The notes beneath the pieces were generated by a model, which saw only the letters and a list, made by a program, of their open reading frames with translations, ran no database searches and was not told the origin of the DNA. Below are positions 1 to 43,279 of a DNA stretch of 43,551 nt, piece by piece (position 1 is the stretch's first letter; every line of letters starts with the position of its first letter). A program made the translations under genes and the position numbers. Source of the stretch: Candidatus Zipacnadia bacterium (GTDB lineage Bacteria > Armatimonadota > Zipacnadia > Zipacnadales > UBA5352); contig JALGTR010000002.1 of assembly GCA_029821265.1 (NCBI GenBank), positions 1 to 43,551 on the forward strand. Reading direction: 5' to 3'.

Positions 1-57
1 ACGGACACGCCGCGATAAATGGAACGGGGAATCGCGATAAGTGGGTCGCGACTTCGG
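1..57 (+). repeat. Left end (attL) with putative transposase-binding sites
   Basis: CGCGATAAATGG (11-22) and CGCGATAAGTGG (33-44) are direct repeats 22 bp apart. ATAAGTGGGTCGCGA (37-51) is a perfect inverted copy of 43417-43431. Confidence 0.85.
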
Positions 58-143
58 TTGGGCCGGGAGGGGTGTGAAGGGGTGAAAATGGGGCGGGAGG
101 GCAGGTAGTTGAAAAAAAACCTCGGAGGGGAAACAAACGCTGT

Positions 144-5998: not shown

Positions 5999-6008
5999 GG
6001 AGCAACAG

Positions 6009-6953: not shown

Positions 6954-7014
6954 ACCTTTTCTGCATTCTCCAACGCGACTCGCGCCTCTGCACAATTCAA
7001 CAGGAGGAACCCTC

Positions 7015-9088: not shown

Positions 9089-9289
9089 ATGGTATCGACA
9101 ATCAAGCCACGACCGGGCATAACGACTTGCCTCCGCTGCCACCGCGATTGGCGCTCACCGGACGTGCCGCGACTCCGGATCTGCCCACGCTGCACCAGGG
9201 TCAACGAACACGCCCAACGCACTGGCCGTCCGCATCCCGCCCGCGTGCGACTGTCGCGGCCAGCGACCCGAGGAGACGCATCAGAATGA
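9089..9289 (+). CDS. Small zinc-finger protein
   Basis: CLRC...RICPRC; AAGGAG SD; coupled to dnaB. Confidence 0.7.
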   Translation: MVSTIKPRPGITTCLRCHRDWRSPDVPRLRICPRCTRVNEHAQRTGRPHPARVRLSRPATRGDASE

Positions 9290-23919: not shown

Positions 23920-25272
23920 ATGCCAACCAAAGGCCAGAGCTTCACCGCGCACGTGCTCATCTGGAATACAGCGGACAACGAGCCACGCGCCAACGACGCG
24001 GCCAATCTCACGCTCAAGCTGGTGCGTGACGGGCAGGCCGCGGTGGGCGCGGGCAACTCCCCCGCAGACGTGGACAACGGCATCGTCTCGCTCGTGGTGA
24101 CCGCGGGCGAGGCCGGCAGTTACAACCTCATCACGGTCGAGGGGGTGAGCAGCACCGGCGACACGGTGGTCATCCCGATTAGCTACGCGATGGTGGACGC
24201 GCCCGCGCTCGCCGCGCATTGGACCGAGGCGCGGGCGGGCTACCAAGACAATCTCAACATCGGCGAGAACGTCGCGGGCACGTCGGAAGTGACCGCGATC
24301 CAGAACAACACCCGATGCGTGCGCGTGGTGCCAGCCATCCTCGAACGCCCCGACACTGGCAGCACCGTGTTCATGCTGCACCTCTACCTCTACGACACCG
24401 AGGGCAAGATGGAGGCCCCCGACGCCGCGCCGACCATCCACGCCTACGGCCCGGCGGACGCGAGCCGCGACAGCAACCTCGACTCCACGACCATGACGCT
24501 GGTCGGGACGGGTCACTACAAGAGCACCTATACCGCGGCGAGCGACCATGCCATCGAGCAGGTGCGCTTCGAGTTCAGCGTGGTCGAGGGCGGCGAGACG
24601 CTCAAGTTCGGCAACACCGCGCAGGTCGTCGATACGACCGCTGTGGACTTCACCGCGGCGGACCGCACGAAGCTCGAAGCGATCAACGGTAAGCTCCCCT
24701 CGGGCACCATCAGCGACTTCGACGAGACGACCGACAGCGTGACGATCACCACTGCCGCACAGACGAGCCTCGTCGCTGCCATCTGGGCATACACCGGCGC
24801 GCCGGCAGTGACGCTGCTCAGCAACCTCGCCACCTACTTCTGGGAGACGTTCACCAACCGCACGCTCACCCGCGCCGCGGCCGCGGACGAGATCGCCGCC
24901 GCCGGCACGACAGTCACCCATGCGGTCGCAAACAGCCCATACTCGCAGACCGCCAAGCTCATCACCGTCGACCAACACTCGGCGTCGACCGTGACGTTCA
25001 CGATCTACCTCGATGGCTCGGTGCGCGACGTGTCGAGCTACACGTTCGCACTCACCGCCTACGGCGACAAGAACACGCTGCTCTTCTCTAAGAGCCACAG
25101 CGACTTCGTCGTTACAGGCGCGGCGAGCGGTGTGATCCGCGTGCCGTGGTCTGCCGCCGACCTCGCCACCGCCTGCCGTGCGGGACGCGTCGAGCTGAAG
25201 ATGAGCAAGACCGGCGAGAGCGAGCGCCCGCTCAAGCGCCGCCTCACGATCAAATCCTCTGACCAGAGCTAA
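23920..25272 (+). CDS. Putative virion structural protein (multi-domain, beta-rich, BppU-like C-terminal domain)
   Basis: Thr/Ala-rich beta domains; C-terminal D.S.YT.....A..G.I.V.W...D pattern; within the late operon. Confidence 0.6.
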   Translation: MPTKGQSFTAHVLIWNTADNEPRANDAANLTLKLVRDGQAAVGAGNSPADVDNGIVSLVVTAGEAGSYNLITVEGVSSTGDTVVIPISYAMVDAPALAAHWTEARAGYQDNLNIGENVAGTSEVTAIQNNTRCVRVVPAILERPDTGSTVFMLHLYLYDTEGKMEAPDAAPTIHAYGPADASRDSNLDSTTMTLVGTGHYKSTYTAASDHAIEQVRFEFSVVEGGETLKFGNTAQVVDTTAVDFTAADRTKLEAINGKLPSGTISDFDETTDSVTITTAAQTSLVAAIWAYTGAPAVTLLSNLATYFWETFTNRTLTRAAAADEIAAAGTTVTHAVANSPYSQTAKLITVDQHSASTVTFTIYLDGSVRDVSSYTFALTAYGDKNTLLFSKSHSDFVVTGAASGVIRVPWSAADLATACRAGRVELKMSKTGESERPLKRRLTIKSSDQS

Positions 25273-26304: not shown

Positions 26305-27207
26305 ATGTCTCAGGCTTACGTCAGAATTTGCAAGGAAGACTCTTGGGGCGACGGCGTGCCGGGGGCGCCGACCTGGAAGTACTTCCCGATCGAGTCGGAC
26401 GCGTACAACCTCCGGCTCAAAGTCCCCACATGGAAGCCGGAACTCAACGTCGGCTACACCGGCCGCAAGTTCCAGATCCCCAACAAGCACGACCTCAGCG
26501 GCGGTCGGCTGCAACTGCGCCCACAGCCGGCGAACATCGAGTTCCTCCTGTGGATGGGCTGGCAGCGCGATGCCAACGACGAACTGAATAGCTATGTGAT
26601 CGAGTATGAGGATAGCCAGCGCGTTCTCCGGCACAGTGGCGTGCGCGTGGCGACCATGACGTTCTCGTCCGAGCCCGAGACCGGCCCGCAGTTCGAGTTC
26701 GACATCACCGCCAAGGCCCAGGCCACGGGCACGACGTTCAAGTCCACGGCCAAGGCCGGCATCAGCGGCGTGACGTTCTTCAAGCACCAAGATTGTGCGT
26801 TCACGCTCCAAGCCGCGGGCGGCTCGGCAACGTCGATCACCACGTTGACCAACTTCAGCCTGTCGCTCGACAACAATCTCAACGCCGGCCCGCACCTCGG
26901 GTCGTCGCATTACATCGCGTGGCTCAAGGCCGGGCTGCGCTCCGTCTCGTTCGACGCGACCTTCCTCCACGAGGCCACCACGTGGATCGATGCGATGGAG
27001 GCCGAGACGAAGATCCTCGCGTCGTTCATCGGGCAACACCCCGCGGGCGGCACGGACGCGCGGTTCACCATCCACTGCGCGGATGGCAACCTCGAATCGG
27101 CGGAGACGCCGGACAACGTGAACGAGCCGACCCAAGCGAGCTACCACTTCGAGGGCGAACTGGACTCCGCCAACAACGACATCCTGGTCACCGTCGGCGA
27201 CGTCTGA
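26305..27207 (+). CDS. Tail tube (major tail) protein, non-contractile type
   Basis: E..WG, F.L.LDNNL and G.R.V...T motifs; no sheath gene present; GAGGAGG SD. Confidence 0.82.
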   Translation: MSQAYVRICKEDSWGDGVPGAPTWKYFPIESDAYNLRLKVPTWKPELNVGYTGRKFQIPNKHDLSGGRLQLRPQPANIEFLLWMGWQRDANDELNSYVIEYEDSQRVLRHSGVRVATMTFSSEPETGPQFEFDITAKAQATGTTFKSTAKAGISGVTFFKHQDCAFTLQAAGGSATSITTLTNFSLSLDNNLNAGPHLGSSHYIAWLKAGLRSVSFDATFLHEATTWIDAMEAETKILASFIGQHPAGGTDARFTIHCADGNLESAETPDNVNEPTQASYHFEGELDSANNDILVTVGDV

Positions 27208-27220
27208 TCGCACGTTGCTC

Positions 27221-27250
27221 TGGGGCGAGCCGCGCACGCGGTTCGCCCCA
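27221..27250 (+). other. Strong intergenic hairpin after the tail tube gene
   Basis: TGGGGCGAGCCGC-GCAC-GCGGTTCGCCCCA, a 13-bp stem with one G-U pair and no U-tract. Confidence 0.6.
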
Positions 27251-27329
27251 ACCCTCGCATCGCAGCGGCCGTGTGCGCTGTGAACGGTCTTGGACGGCTT
27301 GCCGCTATAACGACACCGAAGGAGGAGAC

Positions 27330-28307
27330 ATGAAGTTTGCGGATCTACTCAAGCGGAAGCGGCCATCTATTCTGATCGAGCGCCACCTCGGTGGGCTCGG
27401 CGATGTCGTGTGCATGCGCGAGGCCGTGGCGTCGCTCAAGGAGGCTCACGCCGATCACGACCTGATCATGCACGTGCAGCGGTGGTATTTCGATTTGTTC
27501 ACCGATCTCGCGGACGCGCTGGTGCCATACGAGGACGCGGGCCTGCCGATCATGTGGCCGATGTCGATGGCGCTCGGCGCGGGGCATCCCCCGATCATCG
27601 CGCACCAGTGCTTCTGCCCGTGCGGCGTCCACGAGAACGAGACCGACTTCCGGCCGACGCGCAATCGGATCGAAAACTTCGCGGACCAGCTCGGAGTCGA
27701 GCCGCGCAAGCCCGACCTCTGGCCGCTGCTCAAGGACTGGGGCAAGCGCCTGGCCAAGGGCCGCCGCAAGCGCGCAGTGATCGGCTTGCAGATCAAGTCG
27801 ATGAACCCGAGCAAGGACTGGCCACTGAGGCGCTGGCAGTCGCTGGCCAAGCTCTTCGGCGAGATCGCCAATCTCGGCCGCGTGCGAGTGTTCTCGCATC
27901 AGCGCGAGACGTGGAAGATGCCCAACGCCGAGCACGTCTGCGCCAAGACATGCCGCGAGCTGATCGAGTCCACGGCCGAGTGCGACCTGATGATCGCCCC
28001 CGACTCGGGGCTGATGCACGTCGCGGCCGCGCTCGACATCCCGACCGTCGCCATGTTCGGCCCGACCGACGGCGCGCTCACATGCAAGTATTACCCGAGC
28101 GTGCGCGTGATCGAGCATCGGGATCCCGAGCGCACGTGCCGCCAGCCCTGCTACTACAACGTCGACAACAACCGCTACCACTGCTACGCGGACGCCAGCG
28201 ACGAGGACACGCCGCGCATCGGCGACTGCATGGTCGGGATCACGGTCGTCGAGGTCTACCACGCGGCGCTCGATCTGCTCCACGAGAGCGGGAGGCTGGC
28301 AGCATGA
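27330..28307 (+). CDS. Glycosyltransferase family 9 (heptosyltransferase-like)
   Basis: GGLGDVV, K.WP...W, CDL.I.PDSG.MH.AAAL..PTV..FGPT and C.PC....C...CM..I motifs. AAGGAGG SD. Confidence 0.92.
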   Translation: MKFADLLKRKRPSILIERHLGGLGDVVCMREAVASLKEAHADHDLIMHVQRWYFDLFTDLADALVPYEDAGLPIMWPMSMALGAGHPPIIAHQCFCPCGVHENETDFRPTRNRIENFADQLGVEPRKPDLWPLLKDWGKRLAKGRRKRAVIGLQIKSMNPSKDWPLRRWQSLAKLFGEIANLGRVRVFSHQRETWKMPNAEHVCAKTCRELIESTAECDLMIAPDSGLMHVAAALDIPTVAMFGPTDGALTCKYYPSVRVIEHRDPERTCRQPCYYNVDNNRYHCYADASDEDTPRIGDCMVGITVVEVYHAALDLLHESGRLAA

Positions 28308-28915
28308 ACCCCGCCATCGACTACAAGGGCGTCTACGATGAGGTCTTCGGTCGCAGTCGCGAGAGCGGCCGCTGCCTCGGCTTCTCGACCTACATGAACG
28401 GCAAGATCACGTTCGGCATCGCCGGCAAGACCGTGCTCGACGTGGGGTGTGGCAAGGGCGACCTCATGGTCATGCTGCGCGAGCGCATGGCCGACGTGCA
28501 GGGCGTGGACGTGGGCCGCTACGTGCTCGACGAGACGCTTCCCGTCGAGGTCGTGCCCACCGCGGCCAAGCTGCCCCACGAGCGCGACTCGTTCGACCTC
28601 GTGACGTGCAGCCACATGCTCGAGCACGTGGTCATCACCGAGCTGCCGAGCGTGATCGGCGAGCTGTTCATCGTGGCCAAGAGCTACGTAATCATCAGCG
28701 TGGGCCTGCCCGACTGCCCCGAGCACATGAGCGTGCTGCCGTGGTCGGAGTGGGTGGTGATGATCGATCGTAGCGCCCGCGCCCATGAGTTCGCCTGCAT
28801 CCGCGCCGAGCAGGACGGCCTCAGCGGCAACAACATCCTCATCTATCGAGCCATCGCCGAGTGCACCGAGAAGGAGTATCAGCCCCGTCGGATCAAAAGG
28901 AGGTATGGAGAATGA
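28304..28915 (+). CDS. Class I SAM-dependent methyltransferase
   Basis: VLDVGCGKG, GVD, LP....SFDLV...HMLEHV. ATGA coupling. Confidence 0.9.
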   Translation: MNPAIDYKGVYDEVFGRSRESGRCLGFSTYMNGKITFGIAGKTVLDVGCGKGDLMVMLRERMADVQGVDVGRYVLDETLPVEVVPTAAKLPHERDSFDLVTCSHMLEHVVITELPSVIGELFIVAKSYVIISVGLPDCPEHMSVLPWSEWVVMIDRSARAHEFACIRAEQDGLSGNNILIYRAIAECTEKEYQPRRIKRRYGE

Positions 28916-29310
28916 ACATTGAGTCAATGGAACTGGGCTACCTGCCCCACGCGGATGACAGAGAGTATCTGTTTCGGCGCTACACGCTCGTGCGATCGGG
29001 CCAACTTGGCCAGGCGTGCGTGATCGTGTCCACGCTTGGCTCGCGCCTCCCGGTCGGCGCGAGGGCGATGGCAGAGATGTCGCCTGGAGTCACGCACCAA
29101 ACAACGGTTCATGCTGCCCTCCAGGACGACGATTGTTACTGGATGCCTGTTCTCGTCCCCCCGATCATCTTGCGTGGTCCGTCCAGCGTCGCCAGTCTCG
29201 GGAGTCACGACTGTGGGACCAACCATAGGGCGTGGCGAAACCACGAGGCTGCGGTCGCAGAGATGATGGCTCGAATGCGAGCCGGCGAGGACTGGGGGGA
29301 GGCGAGCTGA
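28912..29310 (+). CDS. Hypothetical protein
   Basis: AGGAGG/GGAG SD; coupled on both sides; no family recognised. Confidence 0.65.
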   Translation: MNIESMELGYLPHADDREYLFRRYTLVRSGQLGQACVIVSTLGSRLPVGARAMAEMSPGVTHQTTVHAALQDDDCYWMPVLVPPIILRGPSSVASLGSHDCGTNHRAWRNHEAAVAEMMARMRAGEDWGEAS

Positions 29311-29311
29311 C

Positions 29312-30280
29312 ATGAAGACCGCAATCATCTGCCCGCATCAGCCCGGCCCGATCATGCTGTTTGAGAGGCACGCGCCGGTCCACTCGTGGCCGCAATGGGT
29401 CAACGTGCTGCCCGACTGCATCATCGGGTTCGGCTCAGAGATAACGTCCGAGACGCCCGTGCGGCTGTCCGACCGCGAGCTGTTCGTCGTGATCGGCGGG
29501 GCCCAGGCGTTGCACGTCATGCAACAACTGCGGACGCTCTTCCCCGGCGTGCCGGTCGTCGCGCTCCAGGACGGCAACACCGCGTGGGGCTCGCCCTACA
29601 TGGGCGCCCTCTCGTGGCACGACCAATACCCCAAGCTGGTCGAGTTCTACCAGACCGCGGACGCGATCTTCAGCGCCACGGGCAACGCTATGGAGTTCTA
29701 TGGACTACTCAATCCGCGCGTGTCTTACATCGGCCTGCCGTATCCCGAGGAGTATCTCGACTACGCGCTGCCCGACGACGAGCGCGAGGACGATCTGCTG
29801 CTGCTCGGGTGCAGGCATCCGATGGGCGCCGACCTCGTGATCGGCGTGCAGATTGCCAAGCGCCTCGGGATGCGGGTCATGCTGCCCGGCGATCCCGCGG
29901 GTCAGACCAAGGCCTTGTGCGACACGTTCGGCGTCGAGTCTGAGCGCGTCGAGCCGGGACTCGATCAGGTGAGCTGGCTCAAGCGCGTGGCCAAGTGCAA
30001 GGCCGCGCTCTACCTCGATGGCATGGGCAGCGTCGGGCGTTTCGTCCGCGACTGCGCGGCCCTGCGGATCCCGTGCCTCTACAACAGCAGGGCGGACGCA
30101 CCTCTGCCCCTCCGACAAATAAACCCAGATTACCATGTGGTGAGTGTGGAATATTTGCTGGGCGATGTTTTAGAGAACGAGTGGGGGTCCTTAGCGGATC
30201 GTCAGTTTGAGGTGTTGCAGCATTCCTTCACCGCCCCCTCCCGCGCCCGCTTCGAGGAGGCCTGCTCATGCCTCTCGTAG
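29312..30280 (+). CDS. Putative GT-B fold glycosyltransferase
   Basis: AD.IF, Y..LPYP and C-terminal SVGRF..DCAAL.IPC, resembling the GT-B nucleotide-sugar binding motif. Confidence 0.6.
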   Translation: MKTAIICPHQPGPIMLFERHAPVHSWPQWVNVLPDCIIGFGSEITSETPVRLSDRELFVVIGGAQALHVMQQLRTLFPGVPVVALQDGNTAWGSPYMGALSWHDQYPKLVEFYQTADAIFSATGNAMEFYGLLNPRVSYIGLPYPEEYLDYALPDDEREDDLLLLGCRHPMGADLVIGVQIAKRLGMRVMLPGDPAGQTKALCDTFGVESERVEPGLDQVSWLKRVAKCKAALYLDGMGSVGRFVRDCAALRIPCLYNSRADAPLPLRQINPDYHVVSVEYLLGDVLENEWGSLADRQFEVLQHSFTAPSRARFEEACSCLS

Positions 30281-30498
30281 CCCCACCACTCATGCCGCGC
30301 CCGCGCGTCGGCGCACGGGTCCGCGTCACGGCCCCGCTCGTCGGCGGCACGTTGCAGCCGGGCGAGGAGGGCACGGTCATGCAGACTGGCAGCCGCGGCG
30401 ACTTCGGCGACGGCACGTTCTACTTCATGGTTACGTTCCCCAACCACATGGGCTGGTTCAATTTCACCGAGCGCGACTCGGGATTGGAGATTGTATGA
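30268..30498 (+). CDS. Small hypothetical protein (SH3-like beta barrel?)
   Basis: VG.RVRV......G..GTV......V.F pattern; GAGGAGG SD. Confidence 0.55.
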   Translation: MPLVAPPLMPRPRVGARVRVTAPLVGGTLQPGEEGTVMQTGSRGDFGDGTFYFMVTFPNHMGWFNFTERDSGLEIV

Positions 30499-31196
30499 AT
30501 CCGTTCGCGGAGGCGACAAGCTATTTCGAATTGACCGAGGGCCGCGGCAAGGGCAGCGAGTTCTATGACTACTACAAGAACGAGCGCGGGCTTGATCTGT
30601 TCGCGTTCGGCACGTGGCAGGTGCAGTATGCCGACATGGTCATCAGCGCGTTCGGTCTCACTCCCGGCACGAAGCTGCTCGACATCGGCTGCGGCGGCGG
30701 CGCTAACACGAAGGCGTTCCTCTCCCGCAACATCGACGCCTGGGGCGTGGACATCAACCGCTGGGTGATCGAGAACTCACCCCACGCCAACGGCCGCCTG
30801 AGCGTGGCAGGCGCGGACGACCTCGCACTCTACGACGATGGCCTGTTCGACTTCCTCCATTCGCAGCAGGTCTTCGAGCACATCGCCGAGGAGCGCTGCG
30901 ATGCCATGTTCGCAGAGCTGCGTCGCGTGGCCAAGCCCAACGCGCTATTGTTCGCCGGCCTCGTGGTAGCGCCCGAGCCGAAGCGCGACGACACATGCGC
31001 GGCCGAGCCAGACATCGTGCGCGAGTTTGACCCCGACGACGACCCGACGCACATCAACGTCAAGCCCTGGTCGTGGTGGCATGAGTTGGCCACCAACCAC
31101 GGGTTCGTGCGGCAACGGGTTTACGAGACCGCGCTGCGATGCCACCCATGGTTCGACGGGCACGCGTTCGACTTCGCCGTCTGGCGCAGAACGTAA
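30495..31196 (+). CDS. Class I SAM-dependent methyltransferase
   Basis: LLDIGCGGG, WGVDI, FD..HSQQVFEHI and DPTHINVK..W motifs. Confidence 0.9.
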   Translation: MNPFAEATSYFELTEGRGKGSEFYDYYKNERGLDLFAFGTWQVQYADMVISAFGLTPGTKLLDIGCGGGANTKAFLSRNIDAWGVDINRWVIENSPHANGRLSVAGADDLALYDDGLFDFLHSQQVFEHIAEERCDAMFAELRRVAKPNALLFAGLVVAPEPKRDDTCAAEPDIVREFDPDDDPTHINVKPWSWWHELATNHGFVRQRVYETALRCHPWFDGHAFDFAVWRRT

Positions 31197-31200
31197 GACC

Positions 31201-31257
31201 ATGGAGCACAGTCGCCCCCGACTGTGTTTTCCCCAGCCGAGGGCGGCTGGGCTCCAT
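31201..31257 (+). repeat. REPIN-like double-hairpin element, copy 2
   Basis: Same two hairpins and ATGGAG/CTCCAT termini with a shorter spacer; abuts the tape measure SD. Confidence 0.9.
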
Positions 31258-31267
31258 CGAGGAAATC

Positions 31268-34153
31268 ATGGCCGACAAAACCACAATCATCATCGAAGGC
31301 AAGGACAAGGCCTCGGCGGTCTTCAAGAAGATCGCCCAGGCATACGCGTCCATGGAGTCGAAGGTCTCCAAGAGCAGTATGGCTGGCGCGGGCATGATGG
31401 GCGCGGTCATGGGCCTGCCCGGGATGATCCTTGGCGTGATGGGCACGTCGCTCAAGATCGTCACCGGCGGCATGAGCGCTATCCTCAACGTCGCCACCAA
31501 GACCATCGGCCTCGTGGTCGGCGTGGTGCGCGGTGCGGCGAGTGCCGTGCTGGCCGTCGTGTCTGGCGTCGTGCGCACGATCACGTCGATCGTCGGCGCG
31601 CTTGTGGGGGTTGCCACGCGCATCGCGGGAGTGATCGTGGGCATCGTGGCCAAGGCGACGCTCGCGGTCGGCGCGGCCGCGGCCGCGATGTTCGCGGCCA
31701 TCGTCTACCAGGGCGTCAAGTTCGAGCGGCAGATGGCGGAGGTATGGACGCTCGTCTCCGAGCAGGGGCAGGGCGAGTTCGCCAAGCTCAAGAGCGGCGT
31801 GATCTCGATCTTCCGCGACCTGCCCACGAGCTTGACCGGCCTGACCAGGGGACTCTACGACACGATCAGCGCCGGCATCACCAACGCCGACGACGCGCTC
31901 ACCGTGATGCGCGAGGTGAGCAAGGCGGCCATCGCTGGCGTGTCCGACGCCGGCACGATGGGCAGCGCCTTCATGACCGTGATGCAGGGCTTCAAGATCC
32001 ACGCGTCGAAGGCCAAGGACATCTCCGACGCCTTCTTCGCCACGATCAAGCAGGGCCGCCTCGTGGCCAACGACCTCGCCCAGGGGCTCGGGTTCGTCGC
32101 GGGCATGGCCGGCAACATGGGCATCAAGTATCGCGAGGCGCTCGCTGCCATCGCGGTGGCCACCCGCACGTTGCGACCCGAGATGGCCTTCGTCGGCATG
32201 GCGCAGTTCCTCCAGGCGCTCATCAAGCCCGCGGACGCCGCGGCCAAGGCCATCGAGCGCATGGGCCTGCGCTTCTGGAAGGTCGGCAAGAACGGCAAGA
32301 AGACGTTCGTCGGCTTGAAGAACGCCATCGATCAGATCATCAAGCTCAAGCTCGACCCCACCCAGGTCGCGGAGCTGTTCCCCGAGGCACGCGCCCAGCG
32401 CTTCGTGCTCGCGCTCATGGCGCAGCGCAAGGAATACAACCAGATCTTCGCGGACGTGAAGGGCGCGTCGGGCACCGCGAAGACCGCGTTCGACATCATC
32501 GCCAACACCGCGGGCGCCCAGATGCAGCTCGCGTGGAACAAGGTGCGTGCGGGCGGCCTGAGCGTATGGGAGGAGATCAAGAAGGCCGCGCTGCCCACGC
32601 TCAAGCTGATGAACGAGAGCATCGACAGGATCAGCGACGCGCTCGACGACGCGCTCGCCAGCAAGGCGTGGAAGGACTTCTCCGCGTCGGCGCAGACCTT
32701 CCTCGAGGGCGCGGCCAACGACGTGGTGCTGTGGCTCATGGATCTGCCCGGCCACATCGACACGGCCACCACGAAGCTCGCCGAGTGGACCAAGCCCGTG
32801 CGCGAGGCGGTTGACTACCTAAGCCGCATCGACCTCACCGCGACCGCGGCGAAATACGGCACGGCATGGGCCACCGCGCAGAAGAGCATCAGCGAGGGCG
32901 CGCAGCGCGTGCGCGACTGGCTCATCGACACCGCGGCCGCCGCGGCCAAGGCCATGCTCGGCATCGGCGTCTCGTTACTCATGGGCTTCCAAGAATCCCT
33001 GCCTCAGATCAACTCCATCCTCGCGGGCATCGCCGACCAGATCAACACCGTCGCTGCGTCGCTGCAGTGGGTGCTGTCGGCGGGGATCGGCGCGGAGATC
33101 GGGCATCAGAAGAACATCCAGCGAGACCAGATGGGCAAGGCCGATGCTGCCGAGAAGGGCAGCCCCGAATGGAAGGCCGCGTATAAGGCGTGGCGAGAGG
33201 CCGCACAGCGAGAGAAGGAGCTGACCGAGCAGCGCAAGAGGCTCGTCGAGGGCGGCGACATTATCGACTTCAAGCCCATCGACGTCACGGTCATCCCCCT
33301 CGCCCGCAAACTCAACGAACTCAAGAAGGGCGTCGACCAGAACGCCGCGGACCTCAAGAAGGGCAAGCTCCCCGAAGCGGTCGACGACCTCGCCAAGAAG
33401 ATCAAGGACGCGGCGAACAAGATCGCGCCGGTCATGCGGCCTCCCGCGGAAGCACCACCCGCCGCGCAGCCCGCCGCACCACCCGCGGATGATGCCCCCG
33501 CGGAGAAGCCCAAGCGCAAGCGCCGTCGCACGATCGCCGACGTCCTGCGCGACCGCAAGCGTGCCCGCATCGCCAAGCGCAAGGCGGAGCGCGAGGGCGG
33601 AGCGGGTCCCGAGCCCGCGATCGATGGCGGCGATGCTACCGAAGACCAGGGGGGAGCCCCTGCCGCTCAGCCACAACGCCGCAACCCTGCTCGCGATATC
33701 TTCACGGGCCGCGGTCGCAGGCGTCGACGCAAGCGCCGCCGACGCGACCCCCTCCGCTATGCGCGGAAGCGCCGCGGTGGCGCCGAGCGCGAGCCAGTCG
33801 AGTGGGAGGAGGTCAATGACCCCGAGACCGCGGCACGCGTGCGCGGTGAGATGGAAGAGCGCATGGGCGGCGGCGCCAAAGAACTCGCGCAGGACAAGGG
33901 CGCTGAGATGCAGCGCGCCACCGACGAGCGCCAGGCCGCGGCCGCGGAGAAGGCCGCCGCTATGGAGGAGTCCGTCGCGGCGGCGCAGGAGGAGGCCGCG
34001 ACCAACATGGAGCGCATGGCCGACGCCGCGGAGAAGAATGCCGAGCAAACCGAGAAGTTAGCCGCCACCGCCAAAGACCGCCTCGCGACCATCGAGGCGG
34101 CCTTGGCCAACGCCGAGTCGCAGATCGCTGCGCTCGCACAGCCGGGAGGCTAA
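31268..34153 (+). CDS. Tail tape measure protein (TP901-family core)
   Basis: ~960 aa and Ala-rich; I.GKDKAS N-terminus, FE..MA.V.T, GLY..ISAG, SDAFF.T.K.G motifs. Confidence 0.92.
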   Translation: MADKTTIIIEGKDKASAVFKKIAQAYASMESKVSKSSMAGAGMMGAVMGLPGMILGVMGTSLKIVTGGMSAILNVATKTIGLVVGVVRGAASAVLAVVSGVVRTITSIVGALVGVATRIAGVIVGIVAKATLAVGAAAAAMFAAIVYQGVKFERQMAEVWTLVSEQGQGEFAKLKSGVISIFRDLPTSLTGLTRGLYDTISAGITNADDALTVMREVSKAAIAGVSDAGTMGSAFMTVMQGFKIHASKAKDISDAFFATIKQGRLVANDLAQGLGFVAGMAGNMGIKYREALAAIAVATRTLRPEMAFVGMAQFLQALIKPADAAAKAIERMGLRFWKVGKNGKKTFVGLKNAIDQIIKLKLDPTQVAELFPEARAQRFVLALMAQRKEYNQIFADVKGASGTAKTAFDIIANTAGAQMQLAWNKVRAGGLSVWEEIKKAALPTLKLMNESIDRISDALDDALASKAWKDFSASAQTFLEGAANDVVLWLMDLPGHIDTATTKLAEWTKPVREAVDYLSRIDLTATAAKYGTAWATAQKSISEGAQRVRDWLIDTAAAAAKAMLGIGVSLLMGFQESLPQINSILAGIADQINTVAASLQWVLSAGIGAEIGHQKNIQRDQMGKADAAEKGSPEWKAAYKAWREAAQREKELTEQRKRLVEGGDIIDFKPIDVTVIPLARKLNELKKGVDQNAADLKKGKLPEAVDDLAKKIKDAANKIAPVMRPPAEAPPAAQPAAPPADDAPAEKPKRKRRRTIADVLRDRKRARIAKRKAEREGGAGPEPAIDGGDATEDQGGAPAAQPQRRNPARDIFTGRGRRRRRKRRRRDPLRYARKRRGGAEREPVEWEEVNDPETAARVRGEMEERMGGGAKELAQDKGAEMQRATDERQAAAAEKAAAMEESVAAAQEEAATNMERMADAAEKNAEQTEKLAATAKDRLATIEAALANAESQIAALAQPGG

Positions 34154-34156
34154 CCC

Positions 34157-34945
34157 ATGCGCGGCGTGTTCGACGACGGCTCCTCAACGATCACCCTCGG
34201 CAGCGACTGCTACCTCGTCCCGAGCAGCATGTCCGAGCGCGTGCGCCACGCGCCGCTCAACCGCACGCAGGAGTTCATCTTCGACGTCGGCGGCGGCTAC
34301 TACAACCTCGTGGTCGCGGGCGAGATCGAGCGCCACAACCAGGGCGACGCGGAGTGGTGGCTCTACCAGAAGCTGCTCGCACTCGGCGCCAGCGGCCTCG
34401 GCGACCTCAGCGTCAACGGCCACAAGTTCCCCAACGCCATGTTCACCAGCGGCCGCGGCTACGTCAACGCGTTCAAGGCGGTCACCTACTGGTATCAGTT
34501 CGCCTGCTCGCTGCCCGAGCGGAGCGCGTCCCTCGCCGCGGGCGACAGCGCCGGCGCGGACGAGGCCGAGTATGCCGGCCGCGGCTCGTGGGACATCTAC
34601 CACCTCGCGGGCGAGCAGCTCGGCACGATGGGCGCGCTCGAGATCGCGGTGAGCCGGCCCGTCGAGATCAAACGCCTCACCCGATGCTATGGCGTGCGCA
34701 TCGAGGATCTGTCCCGCGGGCGGCAGGTGAGCCTGACCTACAGCGGCGATCACCACCACGACACCTACGCCGACCTCTGCGAGTGGTGCTGGCAGTTCCA
34801 AGCACGCATCGGCTACCAGGAGGCCACGCTCACCGGCTGTGGCAACACGTTCGACAACGTCTTCCTCCAGAGCATCACCCCCGAGACCGACGCGGACCGC
34901 AGGCAACTGCGGTTCACGGCCCAGATGATCCAATACGCAGCATGA
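34157..34945 (+). CDS. Putative distal tail (Dit-like) protein
   Basis: Directly after the tape measure gene; two similar halves (G.L...G..F.N..). Confidence 0.55.
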   Translation: MRGVFDDGSSTITLGSDCYLVPSSMSERVRHAPLNRTQEFIFDVGGGYYNLVVAGEIERHNQGDAEWWLYQKLLALGASGLGDLSVNGHKFPNAMFTSGRGYVNAFKAVTYWYQFACSLPERSASLAAGDSAGADEAEYAGRGSWDIYHLAGEQLGTMGALEIAVSRPVEIKRLTRCYGVRIEDLSRGRQVSLTYSGDHHHDTYADLCEWCWQFQARIGYQEATLTGCGNTFDNVFLQSITPETDADRRQLRFTAQMIQYAA

Positions 34946-35118
34946 ACCGACGACGCACACCCATGATCAACGGCTACGAATACGACATGCTCACCACGTG
35001 GCGGCGGAACGCCCATAGCAACCGCGGGCGGTCCGACTGGGCCAAGCGCTCCTATCGCCGCCGCGTCCGCCGCTCCGAACGCACCGAGATCGAGCAAGCC
35101 CTCACCGACAGCGAGTAG
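34942..35118 (+). CDS. Small basic hypothetical protein
   Basis: ATGA coupling; EYD.LT.WRR...KR.Y.RR.RR pattern. Confidence 0.55.
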   Translation: MNRRRTPMINGYEYDMLTTWRRNAHSNRGRSDWAKRSYRRRVRRSERTEIEQALTDSE

Positions 35119-35121
35119 ACC

Positions 35122-39386
<4,265 letters not shown>

Positions 39387-39389
39387 CCC

Positions 39390-40190
39390 ATGCACATCAC
39401 CGCCATCTGCCCGACCTACGGACGCTTCGAGCTGCTGCGTGCAGCGGTGGGATGCTTCGTCACGCAGACGCACGCGGACCGCGACATGCTCATCCTCAAC
39501 GACGCGCCTGTGCCGATCGAGTGCGACGTGCCCGGCGTGCGGGTCATCAACAACACACACGACTTCGGCTCACTCGGCGGGAAGTATGCCCATATGCTGG
39601 ACGAGGCCGAGGGCGACGTGATCGCGCACTGGGAGGACGACGACCTCTATCTCCCGTGGCACCTCGCGTCCGCGGCCGAGGCGATGGACGAGCCCCGCCT
39701 CGCAACGAAAGGGGACACGATTCCGAATCGTGTCCCCTTCCCCGGCGTGGTCAAGCCCCGCCTGTCGTGGTGCGTGGTCTGGGATGGCGAGCGCTGGAAG
39801 CTCGGCGGCCGGACCAATGCGCTCTGCGAGGCCAGCACGGTCTACCACTTTGCCGCGTGGACTTACTGTGGGGGCTACCGACCCGAGCACTCGACCCACA
39901 GCCGCGCAACGCTGTTGCAGGCCGATAGCATGGGCATGCTGCGTCGCTACGACCCCCGGCCCTGCACGGGCTACGTCTTCTGTCGGCTGCACCCTGGCAT
40001 CCGACACGGCAGCGGCCTGCTCGACCGCCGCGACGGCAAGGCCATCTTCGAGGCGGGCAACAAGGACTTCGGCGACGGCCAGCCACTCACCCCCGTGTTC
40101 GACGACGGCCGGCTCGCGGCCTTCCGCGATGGCCTCAGCGCAAAACTCCCCCCTGAACAGGAGCGGCGCGTTGCATCCCAACTCGCGTAA
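39390..40190 (+). CDS. Glycosyltransferase family 2
   Basis: ICPTYGR, F..QT, ILND, SLG.K, and A.GD.IAHWEDDD.YLPWHL motifs. Confidence 0.88.
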   Translation: MHITAICPTYGRFELLRAAVGCFVTQTHADRDMLILNDAPVPIECDVPGVRVINNTHDFGSLGGKYAHMLDEAEGDVIAHWEDDDLYLPWHLASAAEAMDEPRLATKGDTIPNRVPFPGVVKPRLSWCVVWDGERWKLGGRTNALCEASTVYHFAAWTYCGGYRPEHSTHSRATLLQADSMGMLRRYDPRPCTGYVFCRLHPGIRHGSGLLDRRDGKAIFEAGNKDFGDGQPLTPVFDDGRLAAFRDGLSAKLPPEQERRVASQLA

Positions 40191-40644
40191 GCTCATGGCC
40201 GCGTTCGTGGCCACGTTGCCGCCGCCGCCCCTGCGCATCATCGACGTCGGCGCACAGAACGTCAACGGCGTCTACCGCGATCTGTTCGCCGGCTACGACT
40301 ACGTGGGGGCGGACATCTGCGCCGGCCGCAACGTGGATGTGGTCATGCACAGCCCCTACGACTGGCGTGTGGGCGCCGATTGGGACGTGGCGATCTCTGG
40401 CCAGTGCGTCGAGCACGTGCCCGACGTGGCCGCGTGGGCTCGCGAGTTCGGCGCCCTGTTGAGGCCAGGGGGATGGGCCTGCATTATCGCCCCGTGGAGG
40501 TGGGGCGAGCACCGTTACCCCGTCGATTGCTGGCGCGTCATGCCCGATGGCATGGCATGGATCATGGAGACGGCTGGACTGATCGCTGTCAAGACGCGTA
40601 TGGATCAAAACGACTGTATAGGCACCGCAAGGAGGTCATCGTGA
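40171..40644 (+). CDS. Class I SAM-dependent methyltransferase
   Basis: IIDVGAQNVNG, YVGAD...G.NVD.V, ISGQ..EHV and EHRYPVDCWR. TTG start with AGGAG SD (alternative ATG at 40195). Confidence 0.88.
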   Translation: MHPNSRKLMAAFVATLPPPPLRIIDVGAQNVNGVYRDLFAGYDYVGADICAGRNVDVVMHSPYDWRVGADWDVAISGQCVEHVPDVAAWAREFGALLRPGGWACIIAPWRWGEHRYPVDCWRVMPDGMAWIMETAGLIAVKTRMDQNDCIGTARRSS

Positions 40645-42011
40645 GAATCTGCTTCATCAACCCGCCACGGCCGTGGCTCGTCAACCCCCACGCGCAAGCG
40701 CCCATCGGCATCCTCTACCTCGCTGCCGCGCTCGAGCGCGCCGGGCATGACGTGCGCATCGTCAACTGCGCTGGGCATCAGCAGGCCAGGCAACTCAACG
40801 TGGCCGATGTCTACTGCATCACCGGCACGTGGCTCGACGTGCCCCAGGTGAATGAGATCGCCGAGTTCCTGAAGGGCACGTTCGGTCGCTGCCGCATCCT
40901 CGTCGGCGGCCCCATCGCACTCTCGCCCGACGAGCTGAGCGACGATATCGACGTGATCGTGAGGGGAGAGGCCGAGGCGGACATCCTGTCCATTGTGGAC
41001 ATGGAGTCCATCCCATGCAGCGGCCTCTACACCTGCGAGCCCCCCGACGACCTCGACGCGCTCCCATTCCCGGCCCGCCACCTCTGGGCGGGGCCGTTTG
41101 GCGGGAACGTGTTCATCGGCGGCGAGAACTATTTCGGCGGCGGCTCGACCACCATCCTCAGCTCGCGGGGCTGCCCCTACGACTGCGCATTCTGCGCGTC
41201 GAGCGCGCTCGCGCCGCGCAAGGTGCGGTTCCGCTCGGCCGAGAGCGTGGTCGAGGAGATGGAGCAGTGCGTCGTCGACTTCGGCGTGCGCCAGTTCCGC
41301 TTCTCCGACGAGAACTTCAACGCATGCCTCCATCGTGTCGAGGCGCTGTGCGATGCGATCATGTCCAGCAAGATCCTCGGCCACGGCGACGGCGTGGCCT
41401 GGCGAGCGTCCATCGCGGTGCGGCCGATCAACGTTGGGACGTTCGACTACATGGCCGACGCCGGCTGCAAGGAGGTCTCCATCGGCGTCGAGTCGGCCGA
41501 CTCCGCGGTGCTCGAACTGATCTGCCCGGCCAAGCTCAAGAGCCCCAACGGCGCGGTCAAAGCGCTCGCCATGGCCACGAGCGCCGGCCTCAAGACCCGT
41601 GCCCTGATGATGGTCGGCACGCCCGGCGAGAACGCGGACACGGCCCGCCTCAACATCGACTTCATGCATGACATCTGTAACACGCTGCCAGGCCCCTGGT
41701 CAACAGAGCGTGCCCTCTGCGACGCGCTCGCGGTGACCGTCTTCACCCCCATGCCTGGCAGCGACATCTACAACCATCCCGAGCGCTACGGCTGTCGCAT
41801 CCGTGGAGCCCAGCCGCCCTCGGCTGGGGAAGCGGACACAGTCGGGGGCGACTGTGCTCCACGCCGCTCCGTTTGCCTCTACGGCCCCGACGGCGCGCAC
41901 GCGCTCGAGCCCACCATCGAACTCGACGACTTCCCCCTCGACGCCCTCCGCCAGTCCATGCGCACCCAAGTCGCCGCGGCCGAGGCCACCGGCAAGATCG
42001 GGAGAGGCTGA
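40641..42011 (+). CDS. B12-binding radical SAM enzyme (class B methyltransferase-like)
   Basis: PIGILYLAA.L, VGGP, VRGEAE, SRGCPYDCAFC (CxxxCxxC), GVES, G.PGE and PMPGS motifs. AAGGAGG SD. Confidence 0.93.
   Translation: MRICFINPPRPWLVNPHAQAPIGILYLAAALERAGHDVRIVNCAGHQQARQLNVADVYCITGTWLDVPQVNEIAEFLKGTFGRCRILVGGPIALSPDELSDDIDVIVRGEAEADILSIVDMESIPCSGLYTCEPPDDLDALPFPARHLWAGPFGGNVFIGGENYFGGGSTTILSSRGCPYDCAFCASSALAPRKVRFRSAESVVEEMEQCVVDFGVRQFRFSDENFNACLHRVEALCDAIMSSKILGHGDGVAWRASIAVRPINVGTFDYMADAGCKEVSIGVESADSAVLELICPAKLKSPNGAVKALAMATSAGLKTRALMMVGTPGENADTARLNIDFMHDICNTLPGPWSTERALCDALAVTVFTPMPGSDIYNHPERYGCRIRGAQPPSAGEADTVGGDCAPRRSVCLYGPDGAHALEPTIELDDFPLDALRQSMRTQVAAAEATGKIGRG
41803..41862 (-). repeat. 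REPIN-like double-hairpin element, copy 3 (inverted, in frame in the radical SAM gene)
   Basis: GTGGAG-CCCAGCCGCCCTCGGCTGGG-GAAGCGGA-CACAGTCGGGGGCGACTGTG-CTCCAC; 60 bp with no stop in frame. Confidence 0.9.
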
Positions 42012-43279
42012 TGCCCAACGCCCCCAAGCCCACCTGGCAATCCCCATGCGGCCGCGCAACGCTCTACCACGGCGACTGCCTGGAGATCATGCCCAGCCTC
42101 CCAGAGGCGAGCGCCGATGCGGTCGTCACCGACCCGCCGTATGGGCTGGGCTTCATGGGCGCGGCGTGGGACCACAGCGTGCCGGGCGTGCCGTTCTGGG
42201 AGGCGGCGTTGCGCGTAGCCAAGCCGGGCGCGCACCTACTCGCGTTCGGCGGCACGCGGACGTTCCATCGCCTGGCCGTGGCCATCGAGGACGCGGGCTG
42301 GGAGTTGCGGGACTGCGTGATGTGGGTCTACGGCACGGGCTTCCCGAAGAGCCACGACGTGAGCAAGGCGATTGACAAGGCCGCGGGCGCGGAGCGGGAG
42401 CAGTGGCAGGGCTGGGGCACCGCGCTCAAGCCGGCATGGGAGCCCATCATCGTGGCCCGCAAGCCGCTCGACGGCACGGTCGCGGCCAACGTGCTCGCAC
42501 ACGGCACGGGCGGCATCAACGTGGACGCGTGCAGGGTGGAGGTGGACGCAGCGGATGCAAAGGCCTGGTCGGGCCGAGCGCAAGCGCCTTCGAGTGTGGG
42601 CATGAAGAACATATCCAGTGAGGTTTATGGTGAGGGCTTCAAGCGCAACTATGCTGGCCCCGAGCGCGGCCGCTGGCCTGCGAATCTGATCCACGACGGC
42701 AGCGACGAGGTCGTGGGGCTGTTTCCGAAGCAGAAGTCGCCAGGCAACTACAAATCAAAGACAACAAGCGTTCCAGGGCAGAACGGGACGATGGGCAAAT
42801 GGCCCACGAAAAAGGAGCGCCATTATGGTCATGGCGACTCCGGCTCCGCGGCCCGCTTCTTCTACTGCGCCAAGGCGAGCAAGGCTGACCGCGACGAGGG
42901 ATGCGAGGGGTTGGAGGAGCATAATTCTCAACGACTTCGGCTTCCTGCACAAGAGTCCATAGATCACGATGGTAGGCCCCATCAGACAAGTGGTGCAGAG
43001 CGATACCGACCCCGCCGCAACACCCATCCCACCGTCAAGCCCACCGCGCTCATGCGCTACCTCTGCCGGCTCGTCACGCCGCCAGGGGGCCTGATCCTCG
43101 ATCCGTTCATGGGCTCGAGCTCGACCGGCAAGGGCGCGGGCCTCGAGGGATTCCGTTTCGTCGGCATCGAACTCGACCCCGAGGACAAGGGCTTCCTCGA
43201 CATCGCCCGCGCCCGCATCACCCACGCCATCGCCCAGCGCACCGCCGACATGCCCGTATCCCAGGAGGCCTCAGGATGA
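42011..43279 (+). CDS. N6/N4 DNA methyltransferase (beta class)
   Basis: GDCLE, VVTDPPY, W.YGTGFPKS, GWGTALKPA.EPI, GRWPAN, HPTVKP and LDPFMGSSSTG motifs. Confidence 0.93.
   Translation: MPNAPKPTWQSPCGRATLYHGDCLEIMPSLPEASADAVVTDPPYGLGFMGAAWDHSVPGVPFWEAALRVAKPGAHLLAFGGTRTFHRLAVAIEDAGWELRDCVMWVYGTGFPKSHDVSKAIDKAAGAEREQWQGWGTALKPAWEPIIVARKPLDGTVAANVLAHGTGGINVDACRVEVDAADAKAWSGRAQAPSSVGMKNISSEVYGEGFKRNYAGPERGRWPANLIHDGSDEVVGLFPKQKSPGNYKSKTTSVPGQNGTMGKWPTKKERHYGHGDSGSAARFFYCAKASKADRDEGCEGLEEHNSQRLRLPAQESIDHDGRPHQTSGAERYRPRRNTHPTVKPTALMRYLCRLVTPPGGLILDPFMGSSSTGKGAGLEGFRFVGIELDPEDKGFLDIARARITHAIAQRTADMPVSQEASG

Follow-up and report, generated by a model that had tools for sequence, protein, structure and literature searches.

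A candidate phage-encoded O-glycosylation system for the repeat tracts of a tail hub in a Mu-like transposable phage

Introduction

To our knowledge, the only phages shown to glycosylate their own particles are a few mycobacteriophages. As summarized in PMC12363180 and PMC12619734, Che8, Corndog, and Myrna glycosylate their own structural proteins with phage-encoded glycosyltransferases (GTs) (Freeman et al. 2023), and this virion glycosylation alters antibody recognition. Here we analyze contig JALGTR010000002.1 (assembly GCA_029821265.1, Candidatus Zipacnadia bacterium), a 43,551-nucleotide (nt) stretch referred to as the window, which judged by its gene content is a Mu-like transposable siphophage. 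Its tail operon places a hub protein with long Gly-Ser/Thr repeat tracts between two blocks of enzyme genes, g1 to g6 (block 1) and h1 to h4 (block 2). With moderate confidence, we propose that these genes include a system that O-glycosylates repeat tags of virion proteins in the cytoplasm, in this phage those of the tail hub, and then tailors the product.

As in the mycobacteriophages, phage-encoded soluble GTs would act on the phage's own virion proteins in the cytoplasm, which here is predicted from genes. The acceptors differ: the same two summaries name capsid and tail-tube C termini in mycobacteriophages, whereas the proposed acceptors are Gly-Ser/Thr tracts of the hub and, in relatives, of connector and head completion proteins. 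The two enzymes compared, h1 and g1, show no sequence relationship; against 50,697 phage records, h1 had no match (tblastn) and g1 had five weak matches, to lipopolysaccharide (LPS)-type GT9 enzymes only and none in a mycobacteriophage. The window phage also adds three S-adenosylmethionine (SAM)-dependent methyltransferases (MTases) and a class B radical SAM (rSAM) enzyme, and its host group differs from that of the mycobacteriophages.

GT27 enzymes, which initiate mucin-type O-glycosylation in animals and protists, act on disordered Ser/Thr sequence. They resemble h1 in the catalytic domain at the profile level, with aligned motifs, and in the disordered Ser/Thr-rich repeat that we propose as acceptor, but h1 has neither lectin domain nor anchor, would be cytoplasmic rather than Golgi located, and is only ~20-30% identical. 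Glycosylation of serine-rich repeat proteins (SRRPs; GtfA/GtfB) and SD-repeat proteins (SdgA/SdgB) is likewise cytoplasmic O-glycosylation of long dipeptide-type Ser repeats, elongated stepwise by GTs. The initiators there are GT-B/GT4 enzymes acting on secreted Gram-positive adhesins, whereas the candidate here is a GT-A, GT27-like enzyme acting on a virion protein; the likeness of g4 to GtfA/B (5e9t) and SdgB (7vfm) is generic to the GT-B fold (TM score, ~0.6). Gtr-type seroconversion (GtrA/GtrB/GtrC) also employs a phage-encoded GT2-type enzyme, and h1 weakly matches a GtrB-like PHROG (4.7e-5), but here there is no GtrA or GtrC, the enzymes have no transmembrane segments, and the genes lie inside the tail operon; the window system is not of the Gtr type. 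Bacterial autotransporter heptosyltransferases resemble GT9 enzymes. As presented in PMC4358343, TibC and AAH act in the cytoplasm to O-glycosylate Ser residues of repetitive passenger domains, which is a precedent for g1 acting on protein, but g1 matches LPS-type GT9 enzymes and not TibC. In the account of PMC7826918, A064R of chlorovirus PBCV-1 combines two rhamnosyltransferase domains with an O-methyltransferase domain, and is also a virus-encoded, soluble, multienzyme route to a methylated glycan (relatives of the window phage fuse GTs into proteins of 790-990 amino acids [aa]); PBCV-1 is, however, a eukaryotic giant virus with atypical N-linked capsid glycans as described there, no sequence relationship, and no repeat acceptor. 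A literature search that was thin on subscription journals and supplements turned up neither a system of this kind nor any report that phages have GT27-like enzymes or Gly-Ser acceptor tags.

A repeat-bearing tail hub next to a GT27-like enzyme

The hub, the Dit-like gene upstream of it, and the block 2 genes are laid out as follows.

34157-34945, + strand: Dit-like tail-tip protein, 262 aa; no family match, assigned from position and conserved synteny
35122-38370, + strand: hub, 1082 aa; no match in Pfam or PHROGs
35122-35709, + strand: hub N-terminal appended domain, aa 1-196; homologous domains in relatives
35710-36039, + strand: hub repeat tract 1, aa 197-306; proposed acceptor, includes GS units, Tandem Repeats Finder periods 30/18/36
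36040-37725, + strand: hub core, aa 307-868; gp27/Mu gp44-like baseplate hub fold (AlphaFold2 and Foldseek)
37726-38367, + strand: hub repeat tract 2, aa 869-1082; proposed acceptor, includes GTGEGS units, reaches the C terminus
38385-39386, + strand: h1, GT-A GT with GT27-like catalytic domain, 333 aa; Pfam Glycos_transf_2 2e-15, candidate initiator
39390-40190, + strand: h2, GT2 GT; Pfam Glycos_transf_2 1e-6, PDB PglI-like 9jma 2e-4
40195-40644, + strand: h3, small SAM-dependent MTase; Pfam Methyltransf_23 3e-9, phrog_32762 4e-12
40641-42011, + strand: h4, class B (B12-binding) rSAM enzyme; Radical_SAM 1.4e-18 and B12-binding 5.6e-10
42011-43279, + strand: h5, N6/N4 DNA methyltransferase; Pfam N6_N4_Mtase 3.2e-24

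The predicted fold identifies the protein that bears the repeats as a true hub of the virion. The AlphaFold2 model of its core, built from a 26-sequence alignment (pLDDT, 78), had 40 PDB matches in Foldseek at E ≤1e-3, nearly all of them proteins that form the hub or spike base of a phage tail or contractile injection system. Leading these were 7aef_q (1.7e-11) and the MuSo2 43-kDa tail protein 3cdd (2e-11), with target TM scores of up to 0.67, and further matches included Mu gp44 (1wru), the HFTV1 tail, the 80alpha and p2 baseplates, and T4 gp27.

The two repeat tracts, put at about 110 and 210 residues in a first-pass annotation made from the letters and their open reading frames (ORFs), measure 110 and 214 residues. 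Tract 1 contains 47 Ser, 39 Gly, 16 Ala, and 7 Thr, and tract 2 contains 90 Gly, 63 Ser, and 26 Thr, giving 143 Ser/Thr in 324 residues overall. Tandem Repeats Finder placed in-frame tandem arrays in the hub gene only (periods of 18-90 nt, all multiples of 3) and none in window positions 1-35000; the pattern (GGNWSN)12 had six matches, versus none in 100 shuffles. No protein of the window other than the hub has a Ser/Thr-rich tract, and at the protein level the genome bin of the contig (4.24 Mb) holds no other repeat of this kind. That annotation had called the acceptor mucin-like; the Ser/Thr repeats are there, but the term is loose, as the units are Gly-Ser dipeptides nearer in style to bacterial serine-rich and SD repeats.

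The likeness of h1 to polypeptide GalNAc-transferases, noted in the same annotation, is borne out at the profile level. By itself, h1 had human GalNAc-T2 as its best PDB match, with a weak E of 1e-3. When the query was a profile of 14 sequences (h1, two close homologs, the hub-adjacent GT domains of relatives, and three bacterial relatives), the 14 best PDB matches were all polypeptide GalNAc-transferases (T2, T10, T12, T1, T4, and T9), at E values from 2e-37 to 2e-30 and spanning profile positions 6-247, the whole catalytic domain; the next different family was chondroitin synthase (6e-25). Residues D95-A-H97 and H245 of h1, invariant or nearly so in the family, align to the DSH and to the His of VGHVFRKQHPY in GalNAc-T2, and we take this DxH and downstream His to bind metal. 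The profile motif WGfseqaLs aligns to WGGENLEIS, the Gal/GalNAc-T motif, of which h1 itself (CGFFEQEL) has only part, and a downstream His-x-x-Arg..Pro-Tyr is also aligned between the profile and the GalNAc-transferases. Among 67 genomes of the host order, h1 had no close relative; its matches there were weak, N-terminal, and of GT2 type (best E, 1e-7).

The rest of block 2 follows the order first annotated, with a GT2 enzyme, an MTase, and a B12-binding rSAM enzyme after the GT2-family h1 (GT27-like by profile). For h4, both domains score above their cutoffs (B12-binding, 39.5 bits versus 32.1; Radical_SAM, 68.1 bits versus 29.5), and CPYDCAFC supplies the CxxxCxxC motif. Its NCBIfam subfamily matches, which include ApyD as well as a maturase of ribosomally synthesized and posttranslationally modified peptides (RiPPs) and the methyl-coenzyme M reductase (MCR) Gln methylase, are all far under cutoff, and h4 may catalyze methylation, deoxygenation, or another reaction, on a sugar or a peptide. 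The three SAM-dependent MTases (g2, g6, and h3) are generic, with no substrate assignable from PDB or NCBIfam. The adjoining h5 is probably not part of the glycosylation system.

In the scheme that we propose, h1 would transfer the first sugar to Ser or Thr in the disordered Gly-Ser/Thr tracts of the hub, before or during tail assembly. The glycan would be extended by h2, and possibly also by g1 (GT9-like) and g4 (GT-B), while h3 (possibly with g2 and g6) and h4 would modify the sugars further or perhaps act on the peptide. The repeats would be portable acceptor tags; in other phages with close h1 and h4 homologs, they are carried by a head-tail connector, by a head completion protein, and by further neighboring proteins. 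As to benefit, we speculate that the tail tip could gain a hydrated, stretched-out linker or coat that resists proteases and serves as a tether, shield, or adhesin.

Repeat type and enzyme type across phages

Scanning IMG/VR with the h1-family alignment yielded 25 loci; single-sequence scans of IMG/VR with h1 or the portal gave no match, and the relatives described here came from alignment-based scans. Loci L155 to L158 encode full-length h1 homologs (37-42% identity), and all four also encode an h4-like rSAM enzyme (50% identity in L155 to L157, 36% in L158). L158 further has an h3-like MTase (47%), a homolog of the hub N-terminal domain, and a GT-B enzyme. Runs of at least eight G-S/T dipeptides in + strand coding frames were present in 4/4 of these loci, and in 0/21 hub loci and 0/21 other GT loci. 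Because six of the GT loci share contigs with hub loci, the 42 controls amount to 36 distinct contigs (593 kb, of similar GC). The co-occurrence of GT27-like genes with G-S/T repeats, for which the first-pass annotation had suggested looking across related phages, was found in all four IMG/VR loci with close homologs of both h1 and the rSAM enzyme and in none of the controls.

The tagged proteins differ from phage to phage. In L156, and likewise in L155 and L157, a gp6-like head-tail connector (L156:2-1012) carries an internal (GS)12 insert and the head completion protein (L156:1012-1422) a C-terminal (GS)n tail, both proteins being recognized by Pfam; L156 also has a Ser/Gly-rich 198-aa protein immediately upstream of the GT. 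In L158, ~190 residues of GT/GS/GTGD repeats lie in a 736-aa protein adjoining the GT. More distant GT27-like enzymes (25-31% identity) adjoin poly-Thr/PT tracts, and the GT of L159 (34% in the alignment scan, 32% by tblastn) adjoins a (TP)n tract. In these sequences, writer subfamily and tag composition co-vary, with the tag in different virion proteins in different phages, and this co-variation is the strongest argument for the repeats as substrate.

Hub relatives bear on whether the tracts might be mere connectors. An exhaustive representative search found 49 homologs of the hub core, in which the core is usually N-terminal and appended domains are joined before or after it by poly-Thr or Pro/Thr-rich tracts; 15 of 36 hub homologs in the representative library reach at least 50% Ser/Thr within some stretch of 30 residues. 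Homologs of the hub N-terminal domain are fused in P0028, followed by a Thr-rich linker, and are separate proteins in L139, L158, and L165. The window hub has Gly-Ser tracts at the relatives' two linker positions and, unusually, nothing beyond the C-terminal one, where relatives have poly-Thr/PT linkers and Cys-rich domains.

The repeats could be unmodified flexible linkers, or a device for size variation or contingency, with the enzymes acting on other virion sites or performing non-glycan chemistry on the repeats (RiPP-like C-methylation or protein methylation). Several observations fit: relatives tether extra domains by poly-Thr/PT linkers at the same positions, GT cassettes occur without any Ser/Thr tract in L135 and L149, and class B rSAM enzymes include peptide C-methylases, of which h4 has NCBIfam matches, albeit under cutoff. 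A 2026 paper (PMC13445384) reports functional methylation of a mycobacteriophage tail protein. DNA of the (G-S/T)12 type, moreover, occurs in at least 120 IMG/VR contigs; among 80 examined, 16 had it in ORFs of at least 500 aa and most in short or noncoding frames, and a single one matched a window GT, MTase, or rSAM enzyme (L020, h2-like; L041 matched h5 only). We rejected this DNA pattern as a system-specific marker for that reason. We nonetheless find such a reading improbable, given the 4/4 versus 0/42 association of G-S/T runs with close h1 and h4 homologs and a C-terminal tract in the window that tethers nothing, the protein ending within it. Disordered Ser/Thr sequence of this kind is, besides, what GT27 enzymes act on.

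Homologs of other block 2 enzymes recur as well. Those of h2 lie downstream of the hub in L138, L145, L149, and L153, and those of h3 were found in L158, L166 (40%), and L165 (short and weak, 35% over 40 aa). The closest h1 relative came from a metagenome scan: the 4.5-kb locus L180 has h1, h2, and h4 homologs (62%, 70%, and 71% identity) in the order h1-h2-MTase-h4, confirming block 2 as a gene block.

Two side observations concern these loci. The h1 homolog of L180 (L180:898-2142) contains, in frame, two copies of a ~45-residue His/Gly/Arg- and Ser/Pro-rich insert and is also interrupted by a triplicated 'GVPPSGGLPAEV' unit; these interruptions look like in-frame repeat or mini-element insertions. 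The phage of L155 to L157 is otherwise unrelated to the window, and its h1- and h4-like genes lie ~6 kb downstream of the tagged head proteins.

GT genes go with the hub in related phages

Pairing of the hub with GT genes, as annotated in the window, extends to related phages. The hub alignment identified 21 related loci, 17 from IMG/VR and 4 from bins titled 'uncultured candidatus Brocadiaceae bacterium.' Twelve of them (L135, L136, L137, L138, L139, L140, L143, L145, L146, L147, L149, and L153) extend at least 1.2 kb past the hub stop and were informative; the other nine end in the hub gene or <0.9 kb beyond it. ORFs of relatives were kept only if GC at third codon positions (GC3) exceeded a threshold (0.72, or contig GC + 0.08), which drops shadow frames, and those ending before position 6000-7000 were left off the ORF lists. 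GT genes lie within 3 kb downstream of the hub in 12/12 informative loci, which are not independent: clustering at 70% hub identity leaves 10 groups, and at <35% identity there are three deep lineages, besides the window. In 11 of the 12, the GT is a PF00535/h1-like gene, detected by tblastn with h1 in nine IMG/VR loci and L153 and by Pfam in L135; L149 has GT9-like, MTase-like, and GT2-like regions downstream of the hub.

In most of these loci, the h1-like domain forms the N-terminal part of a 790-990-aa multi-GT protein that continues with a second GT2 stretch or, in L145, a GT64 domain. Another 32 downstream ORFs of the relatives include six GT2 enzymes, at least five SAM MTases, one GT9 enzyme, and sugar-nucleotide enzymes (epimerase/dehydratase, RmlC/FdtA-like, and RmlD-like). 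In 10 of the 12 informative loci, either the hub or the Dit-like protein has a tract rich in Ser/Thr. Upstream, the synteny is also conserved: Dit-like homologs (25-33% identity) directly precede the hub gene in 20 of the 21 related loci, the remaining one (L151) having no sequence upstream of the hub, and tail tube homologs lie upstream of the Dit-like and hub genes.

Some features of these loci stand apart from the pairing. Downstream of its GT2 gene, L135 combines radical SAM, SPASM, and SAM-MTase domains in one frame (L135:13575-15084). In L137, L138, and L140 to L143, there is no + strand ORF of tape-measure size between the tube-like and Dit-like genes, only one of ~80 aa, and their tail architecture may differ from that of the window. 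Small ORFs also occupy the place between the Dit-like gene and the hub: in the window, a very basic 58-aa ORF (MNRRRTPMING...; 34942-35118), and in several relatives ORFs without detectable similarity to it (e.g., L139:9617-9874 and L134:9569-9847).

Hub homologs P0027, P0030, P0031, P0032, P0037, P0039, P0043, and P0045 have Cys-rich C-terminal modules after Thr-rich linkers, ending in motifs such as ...ITVYT, ...SVYS, and ...IYVYS; the window hub has no such module. These modules may resemble the Cys-rich YTV cell-wall proteins of planctomycetes.

Operon layout and block 1

Genes were called from the ORF listing, a GC3 frame plot, and inspection of start codons and ribosome-binding sites. 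Together with the family scans, these calls upheld the first-annotated layout of two co-oriented, tightly packed enzyme blocks (27330-31196 and 38385-42011) flanking the tape measure, Dit-like, and hub genes, and the order of enzymes within block 1.

26305-27207, + strand: tail tube protein; Pfam Phage_tube_2 2.9e-19, upstream boundary of block 1
27330-28307, + strand: g1, GT9-like GT; Pfam Glyco_transf_9 1.2e-17, residues 146-270
28304-28915, + strand: g2, class I SAM-dependent MTase; Pfam Methyltransf_25/11/23 ~1e-11
28912-29310, + strand: g3, 132-aa protein; no Pfam, PHROG, or NCBIfam match
29312-30280, + strand: g4, GT-B fold (GT4-like) GT; no Pfam match, assigned from predicted structure
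30268-30498, + strand: g5, 76-aa small protein; SH3-like/DUF4314-like lead only, no Pfam match
30495-31196, + strand: g6, class I SAM-dependent MTase; Pfam Methyltransf_11 6e-13
31148-34153, + strand: tape measure protein; Pfam PhageMin_Tail 2e-22, candidate starts 31139, 31148, and 31268

Junctions between genes are 4-nt overlaps or gaps of ≤14 nt, the gap from the hub to h1 being 14 nt. Consensus scans found no terminator-like site on the + strand after 25504 and no promoter-like site before h1, and gene packing indicates, at the level of predicted genes, that the enzyme genes are co-transcribed with the tail genes. A 19-residue Kyte-Doolittle window did not exceed 1.9 in any block enzyme (the tape measure protein reaches 2.2), in line with the earlier statement that they have no transmembrane segment. 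Family scans of the window turned up no flippase, polymerase, ligase, or priming transferase, and the GtrA-like flippase already noted as missing had no family match in any Pfam scan.

Only the nucleotide-sugar-binding half of GT9 is recognizable in g1, whose Glyco_transf_9 match (64.5 bits; cutoff, 22) covers profile positions 103-236. Its PDB matches were 3tov, WaaF, and WaaC (E, 3e-6 to 1e-4), it scored ≤42 bits against NCBIfam heptosyltransferase equivalogs (cutoffs, ≥134), and a TibC-type protein heptosyltransferase did not match it even at E = 10. The host bin carries two GT9 genes of its own, and since it does, ADP-heptose is probably available in the host. The AlphaFold2 model of g4, built with its three homologs (44-49% identity; pLDDT, 82), identifies it by predicted fold as a GT-B/GT4-like GT: Foldseek matched SenB (E, 3e-9; TM score, 0.69), MshA, the methylmannose-polysaccharide mannosyltransferase 7qsg, GtfA/B, and SdgB. 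The MTases g2 and g6 are 27% identical to each other, with generic best PDB matches for g6 (CmaA1 and UbiG-like). For g5, the Atlas feature score to DUF4314 clusters was 0.92, and the structural neighbors of g3 in the Atlas were weak, lay among phage hypotheticals, and gave no usable lead.

Some of these matches could be read as a pathway to a soluble methylated oligo- or polysaccharide or small molecule unrelated to the virion, on the model of mycobacterial methylmannose polysaccharides or glycosylated mycofactocin. Besides 7qsg among the fold neighbors of g4, the best NCBIfam matches of g2 and h1 are MftM (oligosaccharide methyltransferase) and MftF (glycosyltransferase) of mycofactocin, both far below cutoffs, and h4 resembles the aminoglycoside enzyme AprD4. 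All of this support is weak and generic, however, the window lacks a pathway for a precursor peptide or aglycone, and both the placement in the tail operon and the co-occurrence with repeats would go unexplained, which makes such a product very unlikely.

Block 1 also fills the slot between tube and tape measure (27207-31196) where tail-assembly chaperones normally lie. The window has no recognizable gpG/GT-type chaperone, and the chaperone candidates of relatives match nothing there. The tape-measure frame opens 50-58 nt upstream of the g6 stop (31139-31196).

Weighing the proposed system

The central proposal of the first-pass annotation, a soluble phage glycosylation system acting on a Ser/Thr-repeat virion acceptor, gains comparative support from the h1 profile, the hub fold, synteny, and co-occurrence; two of its parts, the membership of block 1 and the number of methylases, do not. 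Block 1 was assigned to the same pathway by position alone, and no counterpart of it was seen in any relative. The supposed four methylating enzymes are three SAM MTases without assignable substrate and an rSAM enzyme whose best solved relative, AprD4 (1e-15), is a diol dehydratase and not a methylase. These facts weigh against the proposal as a whole, as do several others. Because h1 has neither a ricin-type lectin family match in Pfam nor an N-terminal membrane anchor, we call it, on present sequence evidence, GT27-like and not a GT27 member, and its catalytic similarity is no proof of a peptide acceptor. L155 to L157 share gene order and identities and form one lineage, so the association of enzyme and tag rests on three independent lineages (the window, L155 to L157, and L158). 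L180 shows no repeat and no hub upstream, its 4.5 kb being too short to show virion genes, and L135 and L149 combine a GT cassette with visible tail proteins free of Ser/Thr-rich tracts. One of the 32 further downstream ORFs matches Polysacc_synt_C, and 41 of 42 GT-region ORFs of relatives have fewer than two transmembrane-like windows, the exception being L139:15209-16171 with four; we infer that these two are the same ORF. Finally, the sigma-70 and terminator scans use a crude consensus that may not fit the host of the phage.

The ORF with four transmembrane-like windows and the Polysacc_synt_C match would suit enzymes that alter a glycan of the host envelope (LPS core, O-antigen, exopolysaccharide, or cell-wall glycoprotein). 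On the cytoplasmic side, such enzymes would use lipid-linked intermediates made by the host, either to exclude superinfecting phages or to prevent readsorption of progeny. The nearest relatives of the GT9-like g1 are LPS heptosyltransferases with a probable donor in the host, h1 has its GtrB-like match, block 2 sits at the right end of a Mu-like genome, a frequent site of accessory genes, and GTs that use undecaprenyl diphosphate-linked sugars are often soluble. This explanation has to contend with the lack of flippase, polymerase, ligase, and priming transferase families in the window and with genes packed into the tail operon behind the hub with no promoter-like site of their own. Unlike a moron, moreover, the hub-GT adjacency is kept across lineages with <35% hub identity, the block enzymes are ≤28% identical to any host gene, and the co-variation of GT subfamily and repeat type in virion proteins would be left unexplained. 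We regard host-glycan remodeling as unlikely.

Returning to virion glycosylation, a more general version is conceivable, in which phages share a modular "tag and writer" system with G-S/T or poly-Thr tags on varied virion proteins, a portable cassette of GT27 kin, and tailoring by MTases and rSAM enzymes; drawn from gene comparisons, this generalization is tentative, and we would not yet lean on it. Such a general system would amount to a phage "mucin" made in the bacterial cytoplasm, with close structural kin of GT27 in the bacterial virosphere. If the system proposed for the window is real, phage virion glycosylation has a variant with enzymes and acceptor other than those of mycobacteriophages and with a recognizable, transferable tag, in a phage lineage of quite another kind that is known from metagenomic contigs and from genome bins labeled Planctomycetota (Brocadiaceae). 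It would also include a prokaryotic-virus branch of the enzyme family that starts mucin-type glycosylation in animals. A GT27-like gene together with G-S/T or Thr-rich virion tracts would then be a signature for glycosylated phages in metagenomes, and the enzyme and tag would form a soluble O-glycosylation pair compatible with the bacterial cytoplasm and of possible use in glyco-engineering.

Phage type, host, and neighboring genes

The description of the window as a transposable phage is sustained by a transposase (phrog_310, 9e-23), a MuB-like ATPase/transposition protein (phrog_296, 3e-15), Phage_Mu_Gam (2.8e-21), Portal_Mu (6.9e-85), and Phage_Mu_F (1.9e-19), and family scans added an S24/CI-type repressor, a gpA-type terminase, a protease, and a major head protein (phrog_1005). 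The + strand holds nearly all genes (ORF listing and GC3 frame plot), and the portal is at most ~30% identical to those of known phages. The window is an entire contig, with no terminal overlap found, in a bin of 362 contigs; its GC content is 65.1% (bin, 66.1%), and its tetranucleotide correlation with the bin, 0.954, is the lowest among 57 contigs of at least 20 kb. In a search of the hub core against 401 genomes of the window's phylum, the window was the sole match, and the host assignment of the phage rests on binning alone.

Further DNA-related genes adjoin or accompany the cassette. The DNA methyltransferase h5 directly follows h4, and the phage also encodes Dam-like MTase, PAPS-reductase-like, and deoxynucleotidase-like proteins, so that the block 2 enzymes might be thought to hypermodify phage DNA with glycosylated or methylated bases against restriction, as in T-even phages; DNA-glycosylating phage GTs are known, as mentioned in PMC12619734. 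None of the ORFs scanned looked like a hydroxymethylase or thymidylate synthase gene, however, h1 went unmatched in a phage collection that includes DNA-glycosylating phages, and the link to hub genes and repeat-bearing virion proteins would have no explanation. DNA as the target is highly improbable in our view.

Among the remaining genes, a full DnaB-type replicative helicase (DnaB_C, 6.6e-89; 9127-10614), the Dam-like MTase (6009-6953), and the PAPS-reductase-like protein (10611-11399) are unusual equipment for replication and DNA modification in a Mu-like phage. At the left contig end (window 1-60), two copies of a CGCGATAA(A/G)TGG-like motif lie ~24 nt apart; the transposase may bind the phage end at these copies. 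A 450-aa protein (23920-25272), encoded after the head genes and before the connectors, with 21% Ser/Thr, no family, and a weak pertactin-like match (3e-3), may be a decoration or fiber protein and hence another conceivable glycosylation target.

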